The notes under the pieces are model-generated. The model saw only the letters and a program-made list of their open reading frames with translations. It had not been told where the DNA came from and made no database searches. DNA of 48,432 nucleotides from Promethearchaeota archaeon Loki_b31 (lineage in GTDB: Archaea > Asgardarchaeota > Lokiarchaeia > Sigyniarchaeales > SOKP01): the NCBI GenBank assembly GCA_005222975.1, contig NJBI01000023.1:1-48432 (forward strand). Reading direction: 5' to 3'. The translations under genes and the position numbers were made by a program. Shown here piece by piece: positions 1 to 26,570 of this stretch (within the stretch, counting starts at the first letter, position 1; each line of letters begins with the position of its first letter).

Positions 1-322
1 TATCTTTAAAATCAAACATACCACCTAAAAAGATGTCTCTCCATTTATCAGCTTTTTCAATTTCGGCGACAACATTTCCCGTTGTTACATCGTAAACTTT
101 GAAACTAAATCCCATAAATTTTCCTTGAGCTCAGGGCTCAATCTCATTATTTCTCTTTTAAGATATAGTAATTCCTATTGATACCAAATAAACCCATTGG
201 CTTTATTCCTACTGGGGCACTTATTGGAGCTTGTGTAACTACTGTAGTTAATTCAAAGCCATAACCCTGGCAAAACCGTTGATTTGGGGCTTTTGTTCTG
301 CTCCACAATTTGTACAATGCAT
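1..322 (-). pseudogene. Degraded zinc-ribbon + LURP-one/scramblase-like paralog (runs off the window start)
   Basis: Manual translation from ATG at 322: MHCTNCGAEQK, frameshift, then PNQRFCQGYGFEL...GLFGINRNYYILKEK, stops TAA TGA GAT TGA, then a jump to AQGKFMGFSFKVYDVTTGNVVAEIEKADKWRDIFLGGMFDFKD. The last segment closely matches the C-terminal part of the 2535-3308 protein, and about 100 internal residues are missing. Confidence 0.85.
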
Positions 323-582
323 TTTTTTACTTTTTTTTCAAATTGTCCCATATATTTATTCTTGATTTGTTCACCGCCCTGATAGAATTTATAACAAGAA
401 TGCATTGATATTACTCTTTCTTGGATGGTCAATATAGTATTAATTTACCATTTGCATATGAAATAATACTTATTATAATTTATATGAAATATTATGATTT
501 TGCTAAACATTTTTTTAGAATTTATTATTATATTATAAATAAGTAATCAACTTTAACATATATTGCTTGGAGAGAAAATCAA

Positions 583-1230
583 TTGAAGTGTCCTGAATGT
601 GGAAATAAAATTATAGAATTAGATCAAAAATTTTGTGAAAAATGTGGGTTTGATTTATCAAGAGAGGAATTTAAAAGTGAATTAAAATTATTCGATAATC
701 TCCAAAAATATTATATTTTGACGGAGAATTATTGGAAGCATGGAACTGGGAGAATTTATAATGAAAGAGGGCTGATCATTGGCTCAATTCATAAAAAAAA
801 AGAAGGTTTTAAAGGAAGAATTTTAATAAAGGATTCAGATAATAATATTTTAGCTAAAATAACTAGAAAATCTTTATCAATGCGTCATATTCACTTTTTA
901 AGTGATCCTACGGGAAATTTAATTGCTAAATATAAAAAAAAAATGGTTAGTAATTTTAGATCAATATTTTACTTAGAAGATCATGTGGGTACTCGAAAAT
1001 ATGAAGCTTATGGTGAGTTTATGGATTTTAAGTTTAACATTAAAGACATTACCACAGAAAAAATTATCGCTGAATTTGATAAAGTAGAAAGATGGAAAAA
1101 TGAAATTTCAAGCGAAATTTTAAATCTTTATGATGCTTACGCATTAAAAATAAAAGATACGATTATAGATAAGAGAATGCTACTTGGATTTGTTTTAGGT
1201 TCAAAATACATAATTTATGATGTTTTTTAA
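583..1230 (+). CDS. Zinc-ribbon + LURP-one/scramblase (tubby C-terminal-like) protein
   Basis: N-terminal CPECG...FCEKCG; repeated beta-hairpin segments with G..IA.I.K patterns; ends YALKI...DKRMLLGFVL; paralog of 2535-3308. Confidence 0.8.
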   Translation: MKCPECGNKIIELDQKFCEKCGFDLSREEFKSELKLFDNLQKYYILTENYWKHGTGRIYNERGLIIGSIHKKKEGFKGRILIKDSDNNILAKITRKSLSMRHIHFLSDPTGNLIAKYKKKMVSNFRSIFYLEDHVGTRKYEAYGEFMDFKFNIKDITTEKIIAEFDKVERWKNEISSEILNLYDAYALKIKDTIIDKRMLLGFVLGSKYIIYDVF

Positions 1231-1236
1231 AAAAAA

Positions 1237-1812
1237 TTAATATTTAAATTGATGTCTTCTTCTCTGTTTTTTTCTCTCTTCTCTAATTCTCTCAATTTCA
1301 TATTGTAGAACCATTACTGTACAAAGTATAATCATTGCCATTTGATTATTTAAATTTTGATTTATTTTCAATCCATATGTATCACGAACTCTCCAAAATT
1401 TCTTTGAAATCCTTGCAATTTCCGAACCATCTTTAATAATAGAATATTTCAATCCCATTATATTACCTTTAATATGAAAAATTCTTTCTTCTAAAGGATT
1501 TTCAAACCAATATTTTGGTTTAATAGATACAATTTTTCTTTTCATTTTTCCTAGAAATTTACTCTCATCGGGTTTACCGTTTTCATCTGGTTCGAAAAAC
1601 TTAAATGTCCCACGTAAAGATGCTAACTTCTGACGGATAACCATAATTGTTCTTTCATCAGCGTCTTTAAGACTAAATAAAGCACGAATAGATAATATTT
1701 TTCTTACAAAATTTCCAATTAAATTTTGTTCGGGATCCATAACACGGACAATGTCATGAATAGAGACTAATTTATCTCTTAATATGAATTCCTTCTGATT
1801 TTTTAACTCCAT
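1237..1812 (-). CDS. LURP-one/YxjI-like (scramblase fold) protein with polybasic C-tail
   Basis: F.LRDKLVSI..., IKGNIMGLKYSI.KDG.EIARISKKFW.VRDTYGL.I and a terminal hydrophobic helix are typical of the LURP-one family. Confidence 0.85.
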   Translation of the reverse strand: MELKNQKEFILRDKLVSIHDIVRVMDPEQNLIGNFVRKILSIRALFSLKDADERTIMVIRQKLASLRGTFKFFEPDENGKPDESKFLGKMKRKIVSIKPKYWFENPLEERIFHIKGNIMGLKYSIIKDGSEIARISKKFWRVRDTYGLKINQNLNNQMAMIILCTVMVLQYEIERIREERKKQRRRHQFKY

Positions 1813-2056
1813 TTATCATTAACACTTCTTTTATTCATTTTTTATTATTTTTTAATCGATTTAGAATTATTTAAATAGTTAATTGTTCATTTATGTCATC
1901 ATTATTTGTTTTTATTTTTATAAGTATAAAAAGTTTATAAATTTGTGGAAGAAAAAGTTTTTAATTTTCTTATTCATGGAAAATGAGTTTTGATGTTAAA
2001 TAATTTCAGTAGTATATTTCTGTGAAGGAAAAGTAGATACAGATTTATAATATAAA

Positions 2057-2479
2057 ATGGAATTTGGAAAAATTCTATTGACCGACCAAGAGTTATCGCT
2101 AGTAAAAAAATCAAACATAAGTTTAACAGAAATCGGTTCCTCAATTGAAGAATTCAAGGATGGGTTTATAAATCCTTTAGAATGTATCAAAAAAGCGTAT
2201 AGCGCGAAAATCCAAAGAATTTTTGTTGTAGTAGTTGAAACCAGAGACGATCATTTGTTCTCCATTACAATGGCAAAAAATAAAAACTTAGGTAGGCAAG
2301 AAAGTATTACTTTGAGTGAATTGATAAACGCAACTATTATAAAAACTATCAATATTAAAAATATGGCATCCTTTCCGAACGATTCAGAAATCGAACCAGT
2401 TTCTAATAAATGTGAATATTGTGGAGAAATTAATGATATTAGTTGGAAATTTTGTAAAAAATGCGGAAAGGAACGATAA
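2057..2479 (+). CDS. Hypothetical protein with C-terminal zinc ribbon
   Basis: C-terminal CEYCG...FCKKCG. Confidence 0.7.
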   Translation: MEFGKILLTDQELSLVKKSNISLTEIGSSIEEFKDGFINPLECIKKAYSAKIQRIFVVVVETRDDHLFSITMAKNKNLGRQESITLSELINATIIKTINIKNMASFPNDSEIEPVSNKCEYCGEINDISWKFCKKCGKER

Positions 2480-2534
2480 AATAATTTTAAACTATAAGAA
2501 AAGAAAATATTAGTTATAACATTGAATAAATTAG

Positions 2535-3308
2535 TTAGCGATGACGGCGTGAAGCTCCAAAAGGACCAGGGAATCTTCCACGACGGTAAGGTATACGACC
2601 CATCATTGGTCCACTACCCGCAGAGTCATGCATTACATTATCTATTGATAGAACAAATCCAACTAGTATCCTTCTGTCTGTTTCGTTATCCAGGATCTTC
2701 AAAGCGTAAGTGTCCGCAAAATCAAATAACCCCCCTAAGAAAATATCTCTCCATCGATCAGCTTTTTCTATCTCCGCTACCAATTTTCTTGAAGCAACTT
2801 CGTAGATTTTAAACGACCAGCCAAAAAAATCCCCTTCAGCCTCGTACCATCTATTTCCCATGTTATCTTCCAAAAAGAATTTTGATCTAAAAAAGGTTAA
2901 TATTTTCTTCTTAATTCTTGCGATTAATTCTCCATCTGGAGTTTTTAAATCCTGAGCGCCTCTTGCTGAAATGATTTTACTATGAATCGTAGCAACAACG
3001 GTACCATCAAGTTCTTGGAGTTCCACTCGTCGTCTTATGCTAAAGATTATACGATTCATTCGTCCAATTAATTTTCCCTCGTCATCCATTATATCCCCAA
3101 AACCCATATCCCACATCCGTTCCTTTATCAAAAAGAAGTTCCGATTAATATCGAATAAACTACCTTTTTTCTGAGGTGTTGGGGTTGGAATTGAAGAAGG
3201 GGTGCTTTCTACTCCTTTTTCTTGTGCTTTTTTCAATTCTGTACCGCATTTCTCACAGAATTTTTGATCTATACTAGCTTCATCTCCACAATTAGGACAA
3301 AATTTCAT
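2535..3308 (-). CDS. Zinc-ribbon + LURP-one/scramblase-like protein with Arg/Gly-rich tail
   Basis: FCPNCG...FCEKCG, a P/T-rich linker, LURP-one repeats, DTYALKI...LVGFVLSID, and tail GRIPYRRGRFPGPFGASRRHR. Confidence 0.85.
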   Translation of the reverse strand: MKFCPNCGDEASIDQKFCEKCGTELKKAQEKGVESTPSSIPTPTPQKKGSLFDINRNFFLIKERMWDMGFGDIMDDEGKLIGRMNRIIFSIRRRVELQELDGTVVATIHSKIISARGAQDLKTPDGELIARIKKKILTFFRSKFFLEDNMGNRWYEAEGDFFGWSFKIYEVASRKLVAEIEKADRWRDIFLGGLFDFADTYALKILDNETDRRILVGFVLSIDNVMHDSAGSGPMMGRIPYRRGRFPGPFGASRRHR

Positions 3309-3466
3309 TTTATCAGCCTTATTATCTACTTTATAAATAAAATTCAGTTTTTAATCATCAATAGTCAATTTAGTCTAATAAATTTAAGGATGGGAAAGAA
3401 ATTTTACTTAGATTTTAAAGAAATTTTTTAACTAAACTAAACTTTTAAATATAAAATAACAAAGAA

Positions 3467-4252
3467 GTGAGAAAAAAAATGTCAACAATACCAAGTTTGC
3501 TCAAACTAAAGGATTACATTACTCTAACTGGGACGACAATAGGTTTTGTTGCTTTAATTTGTGGTTCATATGGGACCCGAGACGCCATCTCTTTAGGTTT
3601 TTTTTTAATCTCACTAACTTTTGGAACGGATTTAATTGATGGGTACATCGCGAGAAAGACAGGAACAGTAAACGAAATTGGCAGAGAACTCGATTCTTTG
3701 AGCGATTCTCTCACATTTGGTATAGTGCCCGCCGTACTATGTTTTCAGGCGTTTAAGACAGGGATGTTTTACGATTACATTCTAGCAATTGGGTGTATTT
3801 GTTTCGCACTAGGGGCTATATTAAGATTAGCTCGGTTCAATATTTCAACAAGTACCGGATATACGGGTGTGCCAACACCAATAACCACTTTATTAATCCT
3901 CGTCTACTTTTACGCTAATTATTTTTACGCGTTTGCGTTTGGTGGGTTGAACTATCCTTTCCTTGAAATTGCTTATTCCATTATTCCTTTCCTTTTAATT
4001 TTCTTTGGATGGTTAAACATTACTACTTACATTAAATTTGGCGAAAAAGGCAAAATCGTTTATTACTTATTCATCATTTTAGCTCCCTGTTCTCCTATAT
4101 TTGGCATTATAGGTATTTTAAACCCTAATTTTATAGTATCTATGACCATTTCTCTGATATTTTTAGGTTTCTTTTTATTTTCGCTTAGTTGGTTGCTTCT
4201 TAACTCAGTTATTACACAAATATCGATGAAAAAGGAAAAGGGGCCAAGCTAA
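3467..4252 (+). CDS. pssA: CDP-alcohol phosphatidyltransferase, archaetidylserine/phosphatidylserine synthase-like
   Basis: Family motif DLIDGYIARK...G.ELDSLSD plus RLARFN and G.PTP, typical of PssA; multi-TM. Confidence 0.8.
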   Translation: MRKKMSTIPSLLKLKDYITLTGTTIGFVALICGSYGTRDAISLGFFLISLTFGTDLIDGYIARKTGTVNEIGRELDSLSDSLTFGIVPAVLCFQAFKTGMFYDYILAIGCICFALGAILRLARFNISTSTGYTGVPTPITTLLILVYFYANYFYAFAFGGLNYPFLEIAYSIIPFLLIFFGWLNITTYIKFGEKGKIVYYLFIILAPCSPIFGIIGILNPNFIVSMTISLIFLGFFLFSLSWLLLNSVITQISMKKEKGPS

Positions 4253-4309
4253 AACAAGTTAAATAAAAAGAGTCAGATTTACTTAAAACTATACTATTAA
4301 TTTGATAAT

Positions 4310-6247
4310 CTAATTAATTAGATGTTTTTTCCATTCTTCTATGCTTTCAACGATATGTTTAATATCCACTTCGCTTAAATGACCCAAATGGGTTTTATAT
4401 TGGTTAATTTTACTTCTTAACTTGTGTAAAGTTACGCTAAATCCTTTTTTTTCCAAAATTAGCTCCGCAATATTTTCTAATTCAGTACTAAATTCCTCTC
4501 CATTAAGGTTTTGTAGTTTTTGAACTAACGATTTAAAAGCAGTATCGATTAACATTCCTACATCATCGCCAGCCTTAGGAATCTGTTTTGGTGCTTTAGG
4601 AGCTTGTTTTAAAGCTTTTTGCTGTGTAGTTTCTTTAACCTTGTCTTGAATCTTTTGAGTTAATTCCGTAACTATATCTTGTGTCTGAGCGATACTTGTT
4701 TTTTTTTGGGACGCTTTAAAACTACTAGGAGTAATCGGTTTAGTAGGTCCTACTGTTTTGGAAGTAGTAGTTTCTCTTAGTGTTGCCATTATCCCCAGAG
4801 ATCTTGGCGTTTCGTGTAGACTCGAACTTGCTTTATCCCACACTGTATTAATAACCGAAAGTATAAGTTTAATTAAAGGTGCATAATCAGTAGCAAATCC
4901 GACAAAATCTTTTAACGAATCCTGTGAATTTTTCTGGATTATTCCCATAAGTACGTAATTATCGTCGCTTTTAATAATGACAACGCTCTCATTTTTGAGA
5001 GTTCTATATTCCAAGTTTTTAATTTCTTTAAATTTTTTAACATTACTATTAGTATGTGCCTCCGAAGAAGCAATTTTAATTTTAAGAGTTCCCGGTATAT
5101 CTGTAAATTCTTCTATCGATAAATGATCTTCAAGTTTAGGAACAACTAATAACAAATTCTCTTTAGCATGGGTAATTTTACTTAATATTTCTTCGTTAAC
5201 TCTAGAAACGCTGTTAATGTGCCAAAAATTATCTGGTTTCGCCTTTTCAGAAGATGTAATAATTTTATAATAACTTACCATTGCTTTATTAATAGGGTTA
5301 TTTAAAGCTGCCACGGAATCGACTGAACTACTAATTATCGCGTTAAAACTGTCAATAATAACATTTTCGAAATCTTTAAGATCGCTAGATAAGCTATTTC
5401 GCTTTTTTTTTACCATTTCAATTGTTTTATTAATTTTAGATTCATAACTATTTAACAAGTTTAACAATAACATCTGAAAGTCGTCCCGAAATTGAAAAGT
5501 CGAGTCAATAATATTTTTAAGCGATTCGATTGTATTATCAAATTCGTCTTCAATTAATTTATGTAAGTTAACAGTAAAAGCTTCAAGTATTTTTTCAAAA
5601 TTTTCTTGAAACACATCTTCAATTACGCTCTTAACCGGTTTCTCAGATTTTTTCAATTCTAAAGTTTCGATTTTTTTGTTTAAATCCTTTTTAATTGTGG
5701 TAATTAGCTTTATTAAATAAGAAAATTGATTTTGGGTTATACCTTTAATTGTTTTATGTAGCTCATCCAAAACAGTTTTTATTATTTTCAAGTTCTCCAT
5801 TCCCTGAACAACATCATCTATATCCTGTTTTTGGATAATTACATCCTCTTCGAAGTCTTTTCTTAATTCTTGGGTTGCGTTAAAAGTGGTGTCTAATTCA
5901 ATTATCGTATTTTCTTGAAATATTCTCTTTAAAGAATTTGAAAGTAATTGTTGTATTTGTTTTTTAATGCCGTCCAAGTTAGCATTTATATTATCGTAGT
6001 AATTTATAATGGGGTTTATTGGAGGAATGGTTAGGTATTGAAGTAATAAATCTGGGCTTTGAGGATTGATAGGTATTAACAAACCAGCATCTATAAGTTC
6101 ATTTAAAGATTTTGCATATTCTTCTTGAGAGATATTAGGTAAAATAGAATATAGTTCGAACGATGACAAGGGTTTTCTACCAACGCTTTGTAAATAAAGT
6201 TTCATCGCATTATCTGAAATTTGTAATTTTTTTAAAAATTCTTCCAT
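4310..6247 (-). CDS. TrmB-like protein: N-terminal wHTH, long coiled coil, non-catalytic PLD-like domain, S/T-rich linker, C-terminal helical domain
   Basis: N-terminus follows the TrmB wHTH pattern (L..L.IS...KLYL...L.ELIDAGL....Y..IPP). FWHI.S...V.EEI...I..AK..LLLVVP...DD..VLMG resembles the TrmB C-terminal PLD fold without HKD. GGTGA RBS upstream. Confidence 0.7.
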   Translation of the reverse strand: MEEFLKKLQISDNAMKLYLQSVGRKPLSSFELYSILPNISQEEYAKSLNELIDAGLLIPINPQSPDLLLQYLTIPPINPIINYYDNINANLDGIKKQIQQLLSNSLKRIFQENTIIELDTTFNATQELRKDFEEDVIIQKQDIDDVVQGMENLKIIKTVLDELHKTIKGITQNQFSYLIKLITTIKKDLNKKIETLELKKSEKPVKSVIEDVFQENFEKILEAFTVNLHKLIEDEFDNTIESLKNIIDSTFQFRDDFQMLLLNLLNSYESKINKTIEMVKKKRNSLSSDLKDFENVIIDSFNAIISSSVDSVAALNNPINKAMVSYYKIITSSEKAKPDNFWHINSVSRVNEEILSKITHAKENLLLVVPKLEDHLSIEEFTDIPGTLKIKIASSEAHTNSNVKKFKEIKNLEYRTLKNESVVIIKSDDNYVLMGIIQKNSQDSLKDFVGFATDYAPLIKLILSVINTVWDKASSSLHETPRSLGIMATLRETTTSKTVGPTKPITPSSFKASQKKTSIAQTQDIVTELTQKIQDKVKETTQQKALKQAPKAPKQIPKAGDDVGMLIDTAFKSLVQKLQNLNGEEFSTELENIAELILEKKGFSVTLHKLRSKINQYKTHLGHLSEVDIKHIVESIEEWKKHLIN

Positions 6248-6403
6248 ACTGGTTCACCATCTCATTACTTTAATCTAAACTACTATTTTACTTTTACTAA
6301 TAAGTAATATAAGTATTTATTTTTTAAATTTTGTTAGATAAAAATATTTAAAGAATATTTTTCTTTATTTTAATAATAAAACATTAAGGTTATCAGTAGT
6401 ATT

Positions 6404-7807
6404 ATGAACTCATATGAGGATGTTTTTTTCTATTTAGATTTAACTAAGGACTTCTTAAAAGTGAAAGAAGTAATTAAAGCAGTTAAATATTATATCACTG
6501 AAAAAAATAAAATTAACATTAAAGGATATTACGGATTATTGATCTTCCAAGAAAAAGGCAACCCTATCTTCATTACGGGTAAAAAAGATTCAGACATTAT
6601 AGAAAATGCTATCCAAGAAAATTGGAAAACTCGTCCTAAGAAGCAATCCTTTTTTGAAAATGGATTATTTTATATATTTTCGTACATAGCAGAGACTATA
6701 AAAAAAAAGTCAAAATACAATAGAATAATCATTATCACAGATACTCCTAGCGATCTATCTGATGACTATACCGAAGCTTTGTTTAATTTAGTTTCAAAAA
6801 TAAAAGTTTTTCCTACTTTTGTAGATATTATAAGAGTGTCCGAAAAAGAAGAGCGATTTTTTAAAGACGATGTTAAACTAAACATTTTAGCAAGCGATAC
6901 CAAAGGCGGGATCTTTTACATTTCTGATAAAAAAGATTTTATACCTACTATAAAAAGATTAGTCAAAAGCAAGCAAATAGTGAGCACCTTTGAAAATCAA
7001 CACGCTAGAATAAAAATTAATAAAGACGATTACTACTTCTATTCTCATCTAGCAAATAGTTTAAAACGCGCACCTCCCAACGATGTAGGATCAAAATGCC
7101 ACTTCTGTCAAGAAGAAATCTGTCCTTGTTGCGCCGATGTAAATGATAAACTGTTAGTTTGCGAAGAATGCGGTACTATATTTCATAAATGTTGCGTTAC
7201 GAATTATACAATTCAACATAATATAGGAATACCCCATATTTTTAGATGCCCTAGCCCTAACTGTGATATCCTCTTAAAAATAAATCAAGACGATATCGTT
7301 ACTCCTTACTACGATAAGATGGTATCTGCCGAAGAATATATAAAAACAGAAGAAATACAACCAGACCAATTAGAAGAAGAAAGTATCACGGCTTCTGATC
7401 ACTTAGAAATTGAAGAACCGTTGAAAGAAAAAAAAGAGATGCCTGACACTACAAAGATAGAAGAGTCAGAAGCAGAACAAAAAGCAATCAGGGTAGGTGG
7501 TTTTTTTGGAAGTTACTATGAAGTTAAAAAAGAGGGAGATAAACTCGTCTACCAAAAAACAACTAAACCCAATAACTCAATGAATGATAGTCAAAAAGTT
7601 ACAAAAAACTCTAAAATTATTACAGAACCCAAACTTAAAAAAGTTGAAATACCGCAATATTGGAAACCGTTAGAAAAACAAGATAGAAGCAGTACTGATA
7701 AAGGAAGGTCCAGCTTTTTTGTTTGCCCCGGATGCGGAATACACATTAGCGGTAAGGATAAGGATCGACATTCATGTCCATATTGTGGTTTTAAATTAAT
7801 TGATTGA
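6404..7807 (+). CDS. vWA-like domain + PHD/RINGv-like (C4HC3) finger + C-terminal zinc ribbon (paralog A)
   Basis: vWA elements VFFYLDLT, YGLLIF, RIIIITD, FVDIIRV, LASDTKGGIFY; then CHFC-x4-CPCC...CEEC-x4-H-x2-C...CPSPNC; terminal CPGC...CPYC. Confidence 0.75.
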   Translation: MNSYEDVFFYLDLTKDFLKVKEVIKAVKYYITEKNKINIKGYYGLLIFQEKGNPIFITGKKDSDIIENAIQENWKTRPKKQSFFENGLFYIFSYIAETIKKKSKYNRIIIITDTPSDLSDDYTEALFNLVSKIKVFPTFVDIIRVSEKEERFFKDDVKLNILASDTKGGIFYISDKKDFIPTIKRLVKSKQIVSTFENQHARIKINKDDYYFYSHLANSLKRAPPNDVGSKCHFCQEEICPCCADVNDKLLVCEECGTIFHKCCVTNYTIQHNIGIPHIFRCPSPNCDILLKINQDDIVTPYYDKMVSAEEYIKTEEIQPDQLEEESITASDHLEIEEPLKEKKEMPDTTKIEESEAEQKAIRVGGFFGSYYEVKKEGDKLVYQKTTKPNNSMNDSQKVTKNSKIITEPKLKKVEIPQYWKPLEKQDRSSTDKGRSSFFVCPGCGIHISGKDKDRHSCPYCGFKLID

Positions 7808-7957
7808 ATTTTTAAATCTTAATCTCTCAGAGTTTTTTAAAGAAATAAAAATTGATTAATTGAGAAATATCAATAAAAATAAATAAAAATTCTATTATTA
7901 TTTTATATAACTTTACATTTTTTTAGGATAAAATTTAGACTATATTTTAATATCAAT

Positions 7958-9310
7958 ATGTTTCGCAAAACATCAGTGAACTCAGAGGAATTTATCTTTT
8001 ATATTGATCTTACGACAGATTTTTTGAAGAAAAAAAGCCTTAGTAAGAGTATTAGTAGTTTTATTAAAGACAAGGAAAAATTTAACACTTTAAGTTCTTA
8101 TGGTATTTTGCTTTTTCAAGAAGACGATAACCCGATAACTGTCTATGACGCGAAAGATTTTGGGGCTCTTTCTGATGTTATAGATGAAAAGTGGCAAACT
8201 AGAGAAACTGAGAAAAGCCTTTTTGAAAATGGTTTATTTGAGATCCTGGCTTATATCTTTAGAAAGAGTAGAGAAGCCAGAAAAAATTATCGGGTAATAA
8301 TAATTTCAGACACGCCCAGTCTATTATCTGAAGATTATCATCACGCCCTTTACGATCTTTTAATCAAAGCTAAGAAGTTTGACGCTTTTATCGATATAAT
8401 TCGCTTAGGAGATCAGAAATTTTATGCTGATGATGTGAAGCTAAAAGTAGTCGCGAGCGAAACACACGGAGGCGTGTTTTATTGTACCGAGGCAAAACTA
8501 TTTTTAAATATTCTAAGGTCTTTAATTCAGAGTAAATCTGAATTTATTGTGGTACAACCTAAAGAAGACGATCAAATTTTCGAAGAAGATAAGATATTCT
8601 ACGAAAGACTCGCTGTAGATTTAATATCTTTAGATTCTGAAGAGGAGGAAAAGTGTGATATTTGCGAAAGAGAGCTTTGTCCCATTTGTGACGCTCATTC
8701 AGACGAAGTTCACAAATGTTTTAATTGTAATGCAAAATATCACGCTTGCTGCGCCGCGAATTATGCGATTGCTAACCCTATAGGATTCAATCATTTGTTC
8801 AGGTGTATTCAATGCGATACTTTATTAAAGTTAGACGAAGAATATGTAGAAATGATATATAGGGAAGAACACGAAGAAGAATTTGAGGCTGAATTAATGG
8901 AATTAGGTATTACGGATGAGATCATTGAAGAAGAGCTCTTTGGAGAGGAACAAATTGAAGAACAATCATTTGAGGAGGATGAAGAATTAGTAATTGGAAA
9001 AGAGATAATTGGTCCAGAAAAGCTTAGACCTCCACCCAGATTAGTTAAACCTCCACCCAATTTGACCCCTACTAAAAAGGTTAAAGTTGGAGGGTATTTT
9101 GGTGAAGAAATAAATATAATAAATAATGATCTTGTTCCAACGGCGATAAAAACAATCGTAAGTGATTCTGAAGGAACCATACAAGTGAAAGAAAAAATCT
9201 CGATTACCTCGTTGAAACCCCCTAGAAAGAGCACAATTAAATTTTGTCAAATGTGTGGTCAAACATTAAGTGGTACTTCTATTTGTCCTATATGTGGATT
9301 TAAAAATTAA
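7958..9310 (+). CDS. vWA-like domain + PHD/RINGv-like finger + acidic tract + C-terminal zinc ribbon (paralog B)
   Basis: Collinear with paralog A (FYIDLT.DFL, FENGLF, DDVKL...AS.T.GG.FY); CDIC-x4-CPIC...CFNC-x4-H-x2-C...CIQC; Glu-rich linker; CQMC...CPIC. Confidence 0.75.
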   Translation: MFRKTSVNSEEFIFYIDLTTDFLKKKSLSKSISSFIKDKEKFNTLSSYGILLFQEDDNPITVYDAKDFGALSDVIDEKWQTRETEKSLFENGLFEILAYIFRKSREARKNYRVIIISDTPSLLSEDYHHALYDLLIKAKKFDAFIDIIRLGDQKFYADDVKLKVVASETHGGVFYCTEAKLFLNILRSLIQSKSEFIVVQPKEDDQIFEEDKIFYERLAVDLISLDSEEEEKCDICERELCPICDAHSDEVHKCFNCNAKYHACCAANYAIANPIGFNHLFRCIQCDTLLKLDEEYVEMIYREEHEEEFEAELMELGITDEIIEEELFGEEQIEEQSFEEDEELVIGKEIIGPEKLRPPPRLVKPPPNLTPTKKVKVGGYFGEEINIINNDLVPTAIKTIVSDSEGTIQVKEKISITSLKPPRKSTIKFCQMCGQTLSGTSICPICGFKN

Positions 9311-9477: not shown

Positions 9478-10401
9478 ATGACCATAGAGGAATTAAATGA
9501 AGCTCATTTTAATCCAACAGTTTCCAAAATAAGCATGTTCTTATCAGGAATTTTTATGGGTAATGTAGGGATATTTATTTCATTATTAAGTGGGTATCCA
9601 ATTTATTCAATAGTCTTGTTCAGAGGTATTTTTGGAGCTGCTTTTCTAATTATATTTATGTTAATAACAAGATCTTTTTCTATTACTTTCTTTAAAGAGT
9701 GTTTCAAGATGCACTGGAAATATTTAATTATAATAGCAATTTCTAACCCATTGGTAGTATTTCTTTACTTTTGGAATATAACGCTCACTGGTTATGCTTT
9801 TGCAGCTTTTTTATTATATACTAGTGGAGTTTTTTTATTAATCTTTTTAGTAATAACGAAAGAAGATAAAGTATCAAAAATCAACTTTATTAGTTTCATT
9901 TTAGCAATCGTTGGGATATCCATTATAATGGAATTTTGGACCGGTCAAATTTTAATATTGGGGATATTTATTGGGATTTTTTCAGGTTTTTGCTTAGGTA
10001 TTTTGATTTTCTCTAAAAAAAAGATTTATAAAATTAGAGGAAAAGTTCAGTTAAAAATTAATTCGGATGGAAATTTTGATGCATTTTTAACTTTATGGTC
10101 AACTTTATTCTTAATTTTTCCATTTCTACCATTTAGTATTACAGATTTATTTAGAATCACAATTTTGGATTTAATATTTATTTTAGGGCTAGGGCTTATC
10201 CCTACTGCTTTAGCGTTTACATTTTATAATGTTGGAGTGAAAAAAGATAAAGGAGGTAACATTATAATTTTATCTTATTTTGAACCTGTTATGGCAACTA
10301 TTAATACAGCAATTTTTTTAAAAAATCTCTCTATTTTTACCATCATAGGAGGTTTTTTTGTTCTATTAGCTAATTATATTACGCTAAAATATTTAAAGTA
10401 A
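9478..10401 (+). CDS. DMT/EamA family transporter
   Basis: About 10 TM helices in two repeats; PTALAF.FY..G and SYFEPV.A motifs. Confidence 0.85.
   Translation: MTIEELNEAHFNPTVSKISMFLSGIFMGNVGIFISLLSGYPIYSIVLFRGIFGAAFLIIFMLITRSFSITFFKECFKMHWKYLIIIAISNPLVVFLYFWNITLTGYAFAAFLLYTSGVFLLIFLVITKEDKVSKINFISFILAIVGISIIMEFWTGQILILGIFIGIFSGFCLGILIFSKKKIYKIRGKVQLKINSDGNFDAFLTLWSTLFLIFPFLPFSITDLFRITILDLIFILGLGLIPTALAFTFYNVGVKKDKGGNIIILSYFEPVMATINTAIFLKNLSIFTIIGGFFVLLANYITLKYLK

Positions 10402-25256: not shown

Positions 25257-26570
<1,314 letters not shown>

Follow-up and report, generated by a model that had tools for sequence, protein, structure and literature searches.

Tandem vWA and RING-type finger proteins of a Lokiarchaeia order: an undescribed family with a possible ubiquitin-ligase-like adaptor role

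The contig NJBI01000023.1 of Promethearchaeota archaeon Loki_b31 (assembly GCA_005222975.1), analysed over positions 1–48,432 (hereafter the window), carries two adjacent forward-strand genes, here called A and B. Their products belong to an undescribed, order-restricted variant of the von Willebrand factor A (vWA) plus RING combination, which has a putative third metal site, a GGFFG hairpin and a terminal zinc ribbon as additions of its own. The vWA-plus-RING proteins of the Rpn10, p44 and MERIT40 type count as eukaryotic scaffold proteins, at work in the ubiquitin, proteasome and TFIIH machineries, and no description of an archaeal vWA-RING family was found in the literature on Asgard vWA or RING proteins, on TFIIH p44/Ssl1 or on Rpn10, nor in a 2026 structural-clustering preprint. 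With respect to function, we lean tentatively, and with somewhat less than even confidence, towards a pair of ubiquitin-ligase-like vWA-RING adaptors that are derived, possibly non-catalytic and equipped with a FANCL-like finger. The analysis establishes the domain folds, the homology, the conservation and the distribution; a link to ubiquitin, the zinc stoichiometry and the pairing of A with B are inferences. The finding places a vWA-RING family of 4–9 paralogs per genome in an Asgard order in which a eukaryote-like Ub-E1-E2-JAB cassette is also present. Should A and B turn out to bind E2~Ub or substrates, they would become candidates for the substrate adaptors of archaeal ubiquitylation, a system in which hardly anything is known of the E3 layer; binding to XPD/XPB-type helicases instead would have a bearing on the origin of the TFIIH core. 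It must be considered that the restricted distribution of the family weakens the case for direct ancestry and points to lineage-specific innovation more than to eukaryogenesis.

Domain architecture of A and B

The locus consists of three open reading frames (ORFs), namely a gene for a 645-aa protein on the reverse strand (4310–6247) and, on the forward strand, gene A (6404–7807, 467 aa) and gene B (7958–9310, 450 aa), both of which encode a vWA domain, a finger, a linker and a zinc ribbon. The 645-aa gene and A diverge from an AT-rich spacer of 156 bp (6248–6403), while A and B are collinear and separated by 150 bp. Pairwise alignment of the A and B proteins gave 34% identity from end to end (E 6e-68), which identifies them as paralogs. 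The initial annotation, made from the sequence by eye, had described two collinear paralogs and a divergent intergenic region of about 155 bp, and both statements were correct. No Pfam or NCBIfam model reached its cut-off on A, B or the 645-aa protein. A 141-aa antisense ORF lying wholly within gene B (8809–9234, reverse strand) had no support and was treated as spurious.

The N-terminal domain of both proteins is a vWA domain with a degenerate metal ion-dependent adhesion site (MIDAS). It comprises residues 1–190 of A (6404–6973, forward strand) and residues 1–195 of B (7958–8542, forward strand), the latter assigned by family alignments and homology to A. Residue conservation was read across 44 sequences of a joint A and B family alignment, which held 45 sequences and was also prepared in a trimmed version. 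In the AlphaFold2 (AF2) model of A, built with the family alignment, residues 1–190 formed a confident alpha/beta domain with a predicted local distance difference test (pLDDT) of 70–93. Structure comparison with VIA matched this domain to dozens of vWA chains at Z 16–18.7, with a root-mean-square deviation (rmsd) of 2.7–3.1 over 170–180 residues. The Z values were 17.4–18.7 for p44, 17.5 for ArnB (8s05_B, rmsd 2.8 over 168 residues), 17.1 for Rpn10, 16.6 for p34, 16.3 for MERIT40, 16.1 for vWF-A1 and 16 for Ku; for the modelled domain they confirm the vWA fold without separating the vWA clades. When the whole A model was compared with the PDB by Foldseek, TFIIH p44/GTF2H2 and Ssl1 came first (E 3e-10 to 1e-7 over 340–361 columns), followed by p34/Tfb4, Rpn10 and MERIT40, alongside integrin, vWF and ANTXR at about 1e-6.

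An intact MIDAS (DxSxS plus the distal Thr and Asp) was found in neither A nor B in the family alignment. The position of DxSxS is occupied by D12-L-[T/A/S]-x-[D/E] in A and by D17-L-x-[T/S/G]-[D/E] in B, and only D12, S82 and D113 (A numbering) are invariant across the A/B family among the MIDAS-related residues. The invariant motifs of the N-terminal domain include SFFENGLF, TDTPS and DDVKL. The vWA-like domain lacking a full DxSxS that had been noticed by eye was therefore borne out by the model, the Z values and the residues at the site, and the structural check that had been proposed for it returned the fold in A with p44 as top match.

The second domain is a cross-brace finger of the RING/PHD superfamily, PHD-like in the spacing of its ligands and RING-like in shape. 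In A it is a C4HC3 finger with an extra CxxC, Asp and Cys at residues 229–292 (7088–7279, forward strand), and in B a C4HC3 finger with extra ligands at 8645–8830 (forward strand). Residues C232, C235, C240, C243, D248, C253, C256, H261, C263, C264, C282 and C287 of A are invariant in the 44 A and B sequences, and the ligands of the B finger (C233, C236, C241, C244, D249, C254, C257, H262, C264, C265, C283 and C286) are invariant or nearly so in their alignment columns. The pairs C232/C235, C253/C256, H261/C264 and C282/C287 are the sole metal ligands that are also invariant in 19 distant relatives of the canonical type described below, and therefore represent the C4HC3 core of the finger. C240/C243, D248 (or H278) and C263 are located in the loop between ligand pairs and may form a third metal site, so that the A finger, as judged from its sequence, probably binds three zincs. 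The order of the ligands, pair-pair-single-pair-H-x-[H/C]-C-pair, recalls Rbx1 and APC11, in which a third zinc is present.

The finger region of A had a pLDDT of 66–86 in the full-length AF2 model, and of 78.7 when residues 196–312 were folded alone. Compared by VIA with 48,161 chains, the isolated finger gave a top 50 made up nearly entirely of RING-type, U-box or SP-RING E3 domains. FANCL was the best match (Z 7.0, rmsd 2.5 over 62 residues; second FANCL chain, Z 6.8), and listerin (6.3), Deltex (5.7), APC11, Nse1 and HOIL-1 (5.5) and Slx1 and MAT1 (5.2) were among the others, with the C-terminal RING of p44 (327–387) at Z 4.9. A shape search of the ESM Atlas returned the family's own paralogs (TM 0.67–0.68) and then Prok-RING_1 and zf-RING_2 clusters. 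The sequence profile of the finger produced marginal PHD, C1 and RING matches, the best of which was the PHD of MTF2 (E 0.015), followed by that of KDM5D. Pfam PHD matched 12 of the 44 family members (best E 0.0016), all under the 24-bit cut-off, and the RING models zf-RING_2, zf-C3HC4, Prok-RING_1 and zf-RING-like were sub-threshold in 4–5 of the 44 (best E 0.008–0.019). The full-length A/B profile yielded only matches of E>0.1 among PDB sequences, to PHD, RING and Nse1 fingers and to RPB12-type ribbons. The initial annotation had taken the spacing C-x2-C...C-x2-C-x4-H-x2-C...C-x(2-4)-C, with an extra CxxC, as a PHD or RINGv finger. The spacing proved to be invariant in the 44 sequences and the assignment stands at the level of the superfamily, but structure ranks RING domains over PHD.

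The finger of A is followed by a low-complexity, acidic and disordered linker (pLDDT below 50 at residues 318–368 and 388–437 of the AF2 model), in which an R-I-G-G-F-F-G motif and a beta-hairpin are found at residues 362–386 (7487–7561, forward strand), the modelled strands being 371–377 and 380–386. G365, G366, F368 and G369 of A are invariant in A and B, thus defining a G-G-[F/Y]-F-G motif, which reads V-G-G-Y-F-G in the linker of B (9074–9142, forward strand; G378, G379, F381 and G382 invariant). Both proteins end in a C4 zinc ribbon, which is formed in A by the conserved C441, C444, C458 and C461 (7715–7798, forward strand) and in B by C430, C433, C443 and C446, invariant in the family alignment (9239–9301, forward strand). 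The ribbon of A showed a weak match to the NCBIfam zinc finger HVO_2753 (E 0.003). The charged disordered linker and the terminal zinc ribbon had both been anticipated from the letters, and the low pLDDT and the four cysteines agree with them. A ubiquitin-interacting motif (UIM) in the acidic linker was considered and rejected, judging by eye, on account of motif misfit and absence of conservation.

Relatives and distribution of the family

Close homologs of A and of B number hundreds each, every one of them from Asgard metagenome-assembled genomes (MAGs). Strong purifying selection is evident from the 55–70% identity within the family and from the 12 metal ligands that never vary. A hidden Markov model (HMM) of the vWA domain plus finger, run against 1.84 billion representatives, retrieved only 167 clusters at E<=1e-3. 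Its weaker matches are Asgard proteins of about 400 aa, here called canonical relatives, in which DxSxS is intact, the middle finger is the same and an additional RING-H2 is present at the C terminus; some of them pass the Pfam cut-offs for Ssl1-like, zf-RING_2 or PHD_NSD. In hhalign, the A/B profile aligned with the canonical relatives at 99.9% probability (E 9e-34, 279 columns across vWA and finger). Searched against PDB sequences, the profile of the canonical relatives matched Rpn10 (E 3e-16), p44 (6e-13), MERIT40 (1.4e-8), the ArnB-type chain 8s05_A (3e-7), Ssl1 (6e-7) and Tfb4 (2.6e-4). Their C-terminal RING matched RNF38/Arkadia at 1e-4, and their middle finger the FANCL RING at E 0.002.

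Two canonical paralogs are present in the same genome as A and B (C6:16753-17913 and C13:64431-65606). Both exceed the Pfam Ssl1-like cut-off of 27 bits, with scores of 35.0 and 38.1, and one of them has a weak Tfb4 match of 24 bits. Prok-RING_1, sub-threshold in the A/B relatives, is just over its cut-off in one of these paralogs (29.8 vs 29.1 bits). Ssl1-like (PF04056) gave no match on A, B or the 44 family members at E<=1, Tfb4 and C1_4 (PF07975) none on A or B at the same threshold, and the A/B profile met no vWA chain in the PDB at E<=10; in sequence, A and B appear to have diverged beyond direct HMM detection of the vWA clade. The ESM-Atlas language-model neighbours of A were its own clusters, then canonical clusters (Ssl1 on 76–92% of members) and next, as leads only, eukaryotic GTF2H2/Ssl1 clusters at 0.85–0.89 and Tfb4 at 0.82. 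The vWA domain had been assigned by eye to the clade of p44/Ssl1, p34/Tfb4, Rpn10 and MERIT40. The chain of profiles that leads from A and B to the canonical relatives and from these to Rpn10 and p44 makes that placement probably right, although only transitively, and it is supported by the Foldseek ranking, the Ssl1-like matches of the paralogs and the ESM Atlas.

A and B differ from the two canonical paralogs in this genome by the absence of the two MIDAS serines and of the C-terminal RING-H2 and by the presence of the acidic linker, the GG(F/Y)FG hairpin and the zinc ribbon. Loss of the former and gain of the latter by A and B is the best explanation. The canonical paralog of contig C13 (397 aa, with Ssl1-like at 38 bits, Prok-RING_1 and zf-RING_2; locus C13:62931-67106) is divergent from the gene of a 402-aa Gtr1/RagA/Arf-like small GTPase, and a TPR/SNAP-like gene is found about 1.2 kb downstream of it.

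The distribution of the family was surveyed in 201 genomes of the phylum. Matches to A were present in 39 of the 40 genomes of its own taxonomic family and in two of the three of the sister family, and elsewhere the survey returned one marginal match to the ribbon only. At E<=1e-10, the canonical profile matched every genome of the own family (40) and of the sister family (3), whereas the 157 genomes from 25 other families gave no match. The protein family, with about 2–9 matches per genome, was confined to one Lokiarchaeia order in this survey. In a quick maximum-likelihood (ML) tree, a canonical clan was set apart from a derived clan, the latter composed of a third-paralog group (e.g., P0419, about 385 aa, with the same vWA-finger-acidic linker-ribbon plan), a P0403-type group and an A/B-type group. 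The A and B clades fell in one sub-clade of the A/B-type group (Shimodaira–Hasegawa approximate likelihood ratio test, SH-aLRT, 94), and two genera as well as the sister family contain only one gene of the A/B type; therefore, the duplication that gave rise to A and B is recent and internal to one taxonomic family.

Other arrangements of the same domains were also observed. In G135:C118:14636-16464, the copy upstream of a B-type gene matches only residues 251–398 of A and contains an in-frame TAA, and may be a decaying A copy. The fusion protein P0453 (519 aa) combines an N-terminal patatin phospholipase with an A/B-type vWA at 334–501, and the fusions P0455, P0456, P0461 and P0464, of about 1,100 aa, have the finger of the family at about 220–350, followed by a zinc ribbon.

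Ubiquitin context and comparison with known systems

The genome encodes a complete operon for Ub, E1 (ThiF), E2 (UQ_con) and JAB on contig C60 (Ub 3576–3908, E1 3984–5216, E2 5294–5821), followed by a 371-aa polytopic membrane protein (P0515; operon and protein together 3576–7765). P0515 has a linker rich in Thr and Arg and ends in a RING-H2-like finger, and from its sequence looks like a membrane-anchored candidate E3. In hhalign, this RING of the operon aligned with the one at the C terminus of the canonical paralogs (92.8%, E 4e-7). The presence of the operon and this resemblance are among the reasons why a ubiquitin-ligase-like adaptor role is favoured for the family that includes A and B.

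The proposed mechanism takes A and B as the products of a recent duplication within an order-specific family of cytoplasmic vWA and RING-finger proteins, with a vWA domain presumably descended from the intracellular clade of Rpn10, TFIIH p44/Ssl1 and MERIT40, and a C4HC3 cross-brace RING-type finger into which a third metal site would have been inserted. The face of the vWA domain would dock a client or a complex subunit, and the finger a second protein, most plausibly the E2~Ub of the same genome or a catalytic paralog. A and B may work as a pair; prediction of the full-length A and B complex with family alignments gave a score of 0.00, which argues neither for nor against pairing. The positions by which RING E3s contact E2 are kept in the finger, namely a hydrophobic residue at C1+2 (F/I/L), an aromatic residue at C6+4 (Y268) and, in A, a Pro after C7.

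A number of results weigh against an adaptor role in ubiquitylation. The neighbourhoods of A and B, of three canonical relatives located on metagenomic contigs and of the two canonical paralogs in the genome of A and B contained no ubiquitin-system gene; repair genes were likewise absent beside these relatives and paralogs. The RING of the Ub operon did not align with the A/B finger in hhalign, and A and B have no C-terminal RING-H2, the domain that resembles it, so they may be non-catalytic. The best Z of the finger (7.0) is under the caution line of 8 given for the tool and modest for a domain of 65 residues, Foldseek of the isolated A finger returned nothing below E 0.19 (p44 being first), and no Pfam RING or PHD model reached its cut-off on A or B. 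In addition, the residue after the last Cys of the finger is Asp, Glu or Gln, and not the Arg/Lys linchpin that is common in active RINGs, and the eukaryotic vWA relatives are mostly scaffolds rather than enzymes.

Several known systems share part of this architecture. TFIIH p44 (Ssl1) and p34 (Tfb4), like A and B, are a paralogous pair with an N-terminal MIDAS-poor vWA domain and, behind it, zinc fingers among which is a cross-brace RING-like domain, and p44 is the best Foldseek match (E 3e-10). However, p44 has a C4 finger and a C4C4 RING, whereas in A and B a single C4HC3 finger with a putative third site is joined by a distal C4 ribbon, a long acidic linker and the GGFFG motif, and both proteins are confined to one archaeal order. 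Rpn10/PSMD4 is the best profile match of the canonical members (E 3e-16), with which it shares the signature D-x-S-x-x-M...DF-P-x-RL, and it resembles A in its vWA domain (Z 17.1) and in the flexible acidic tail that follows it. Unlike Rpn10, A and B lack that signature, have no recognised UIMs and possess a RING-type finger and a zinc ribbon. The RING of FANCL, a 'PHD-like' C4HC3 RING E3, has the same ligand set as the A finger (Z 7.0) and matches the canonical finger at E 0.002; A and B differ from FANCL in the absence of ELF and DRWD domains and in the extra CxxC, Asp and Cys ligands, which suggest a third zinc. MERIT40/BABAM1, of the BRCA1-A and BRISC deubiquitinase complexes, has a MIDAS-poor scaffold vWA domain (Z 16.3 to A; profile E 1.4e-8 via the canonical relatives), but it is devoid of fingers, and no JAMM partner gene is found beside A and B. 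The plant vWA-RING E3 ligases RGLG1/2 and the WAV3 family combine, as A and B do, vWA and RING in one cytoplasmic protein. In RGLG the vWA domain is copine-type with an intact MIDAS and the RING-HC is C-terminal, and WAV3 differs from A and B in domain order and finger type.

Alternative readings and gene neighbourhood

The initial annotation had described the 645-aa neighbour of A as a winged helix-turn-helix (wHTH), coiled-coil and PLD-fold protein and would have taken the absence of a conserved linkage of the three genes in relatives as a refutation of its proposal. The protein has 208 homologs, all of them Asgard (46–98% identity), and probably consists of an N-terminal wHTH, a long helical middle, an alpha/beta domain, a disordered linker and a conserved C-terminal helical domain. 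The earlier description found weak backing: the wHTH regulator 2d1h matched at E 0.06, and Regulator_TrmB (PF11495) matched 3 of 25 homologs (best E 0.008). TrmB (PF01978) gave no Pfam match on the protein at E<=1, and is present on 25–33% of the members in its ESM-Atlas clusters.

In four MAGs examined, the same order recurs: LOR/scramblase-like genes, the CDP-alcohol phosphatidyltransferase gene (pssA), the 645-aa gene on the reverse strand, and A and B on the forward strand. The four contigs with the trio share synteny over more than 15 kb. The stretch 1–4252 of the window holds zinc-ribbon-bearing LOR/scramblase-like paralogs together with the gene of the CDP-alcohol phosphatidyltransferase, which are syntenic with the 645-aa gene across the taxonomic family. 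One genus has a single A/B-type gene divergent from a 645-aa-like gene, and in another (L022) two unrelated genes are located between the A/B-type gene and the 645-aa homolog, which still adjoins pssA. The 645-aa gene thus tracks pssA and not A and B. In the sister family, the neighbours of the A/B-type genes are SDR and ABC genes, or a Ras GTPase and actin, and matches to the 645-aa protein are remote only. The three-gene linkage therefore holds within one taxonomic family, but is loosened in one genus and absent from the sister family. Given that the whole region is syntenic across the family, the adjacency may be inherited and not functional.

Both spacers of the trio contain conserved blocks. 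The alignment of five orthologous divergent spacers has 54 invariant columns, though the flanking proteins are just 55–60% identical. Its conserved block of about 70–75 nt (6290–6366 in the window) contains AATATT-TAAAG-AATATT and TAATAAGTAATATAA; to judge from its letters, it probably holds shared promoters or an operator. The alignment of five orthologous A-B spacers revealed a block of about 45 nt (7870–7913) with the TATA-like TTTATATAA. These blocks suggest constrained promoters and a separate promoter for B.

Three other readings of the pair, and a wider evolutionary one, were considered. A and B might form a p44/p34-like scaffold, that is, a heterodimer held by vWA-finger contacts that braces or regulates an XPD/XPB-type helicase or else a factor of transcription or repair, and takes no part in ubiquitin chemistry. 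We regard this as unlikely, although it agrees with a considerable number of observations. The Foldseek alignment with p44/GTF2H2 and Ssl1 runs through vWA and finger (361 columns), the VIA alignment covers residues 1–286 of the A model against 55–387 of p44, and p44 is the first match of the finger in Foldseek (non-significant, E 0.19), with its C-terminal RING at Z 4.9. The canonical paralogs pass Ssl1-like (35.0 and 38.1 bits, with Tfb4 weak at 24 bits), the nearest eukaryotic ESM-Atlas clusters are those of GTF2H2/Ssl1 and then Tfb4, an XPD-type helicase gene is present in the genome on contig C77 (region 25729–26274), and A and B are tandem paralogs, as p44 and p34 are paralogs. Nevertheless, neither A nor B matches Ssl1, Tfb4 or C1_4 in Pfam at E<=1, Rpn10 stands above p44 in the profile search with the canonical relatives, and the VIA Z values are tied within 2 units across vWA domains (ArnB 17.5, Rpn10 17.1, vWF 16.1). 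Moreover, the XPD gene is unlinked to A and B, a heterodimer is not obligatory, given that only one gene of the A/B type exists in some genera and in the sister family, and the 0 of 157 genomes in 25 other families is not what the ancestor of a pan-eukaryotic complex would predict. The forerunner of p44/p34 that had been suggested at the outset is weakened by this confinement to one order and by the absence from A and B of the C-terminal C1_4 RING of p44. A broader proposal, in which the Loki vWA-RING family is the archaeal sister of eukaryotic p44/Ssl1-p34/Tfb4 (and of Rpn10), the TFIIH scaffold and the proteasomal receptor come from an Asgard vWA-RING E3-like protein, and the A/B pair is an independent archaeal case of duplication to heterodimer, is in our opinion a speculative idea with little chance of being right.

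We find it improbable that the pair is a transcription or chromatin cofactor in which the finger would be a PHD-type reader or a protein-DNA adaptor, acting with a TrmB-like wHTH neighbour that binds the conserved spacer. Every PHD match is sub-threshold, including those to MTF2 and KDM5D and the 12 of 44 in Pfam, and structure places RING E3 domains above PHD fingers, although the C-x2-C-x4-H-x2-C spacing is PHD-like. In the examined genera of the own family, the 645-aa gene remains divergent from its A/B-type neighbour, and the spacer between them retains a conserved block of about 70 nt; on the other hand, the linkage is loosened by two intervening genes in one genus and missing from the sister family, the 645-aa gene follows pssA, the family-wide synteny may be all that keeps the genes together, and the wHTH assignment itself is weak. 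A regulatory or membrane-associated complex of vWA and zinc-finger proteins similar to ArnA/ArnB or Sec23/24, tied to the adjacent lipid genes, seems very improbable. ArnB is level with p44 at Z 17.5 (8s05_B, under the title 'archaeal ortholog of the Sec23/24 core motif'), the canonical-relative profile matches 8s05_A at E 3e-7, and the LOR-pssA block is conserved beside the trio, but Sec23 and Sec24 were not among the best matches, A and B contain neither the ArnA-type FHA and ArnB C-terminal domains nor membrane segments, and the neighbours in the sister family (SDR and ABC, or Ras and actin) are unrelated.

In one locus of the sister family (L021, 3701–7074), a single A/B-type gene is divergent from the gene of a Ras-family GTPase (197 aa), and the GTPase gene in turn adjoins one of the actin family (382 aa, Pfam Actin E 9e-80). 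The A/B-type gene thus has a different neighbourhood there, made up of eukaryote-like signature genes and possibly meaningful. Downstream of B, the window contains a gene for an EamA-family transporter (9478–10401), where four related contigs have aminotransferase or small unknown genes. The transporter gene is a local rearrangement just downstream of the pair.

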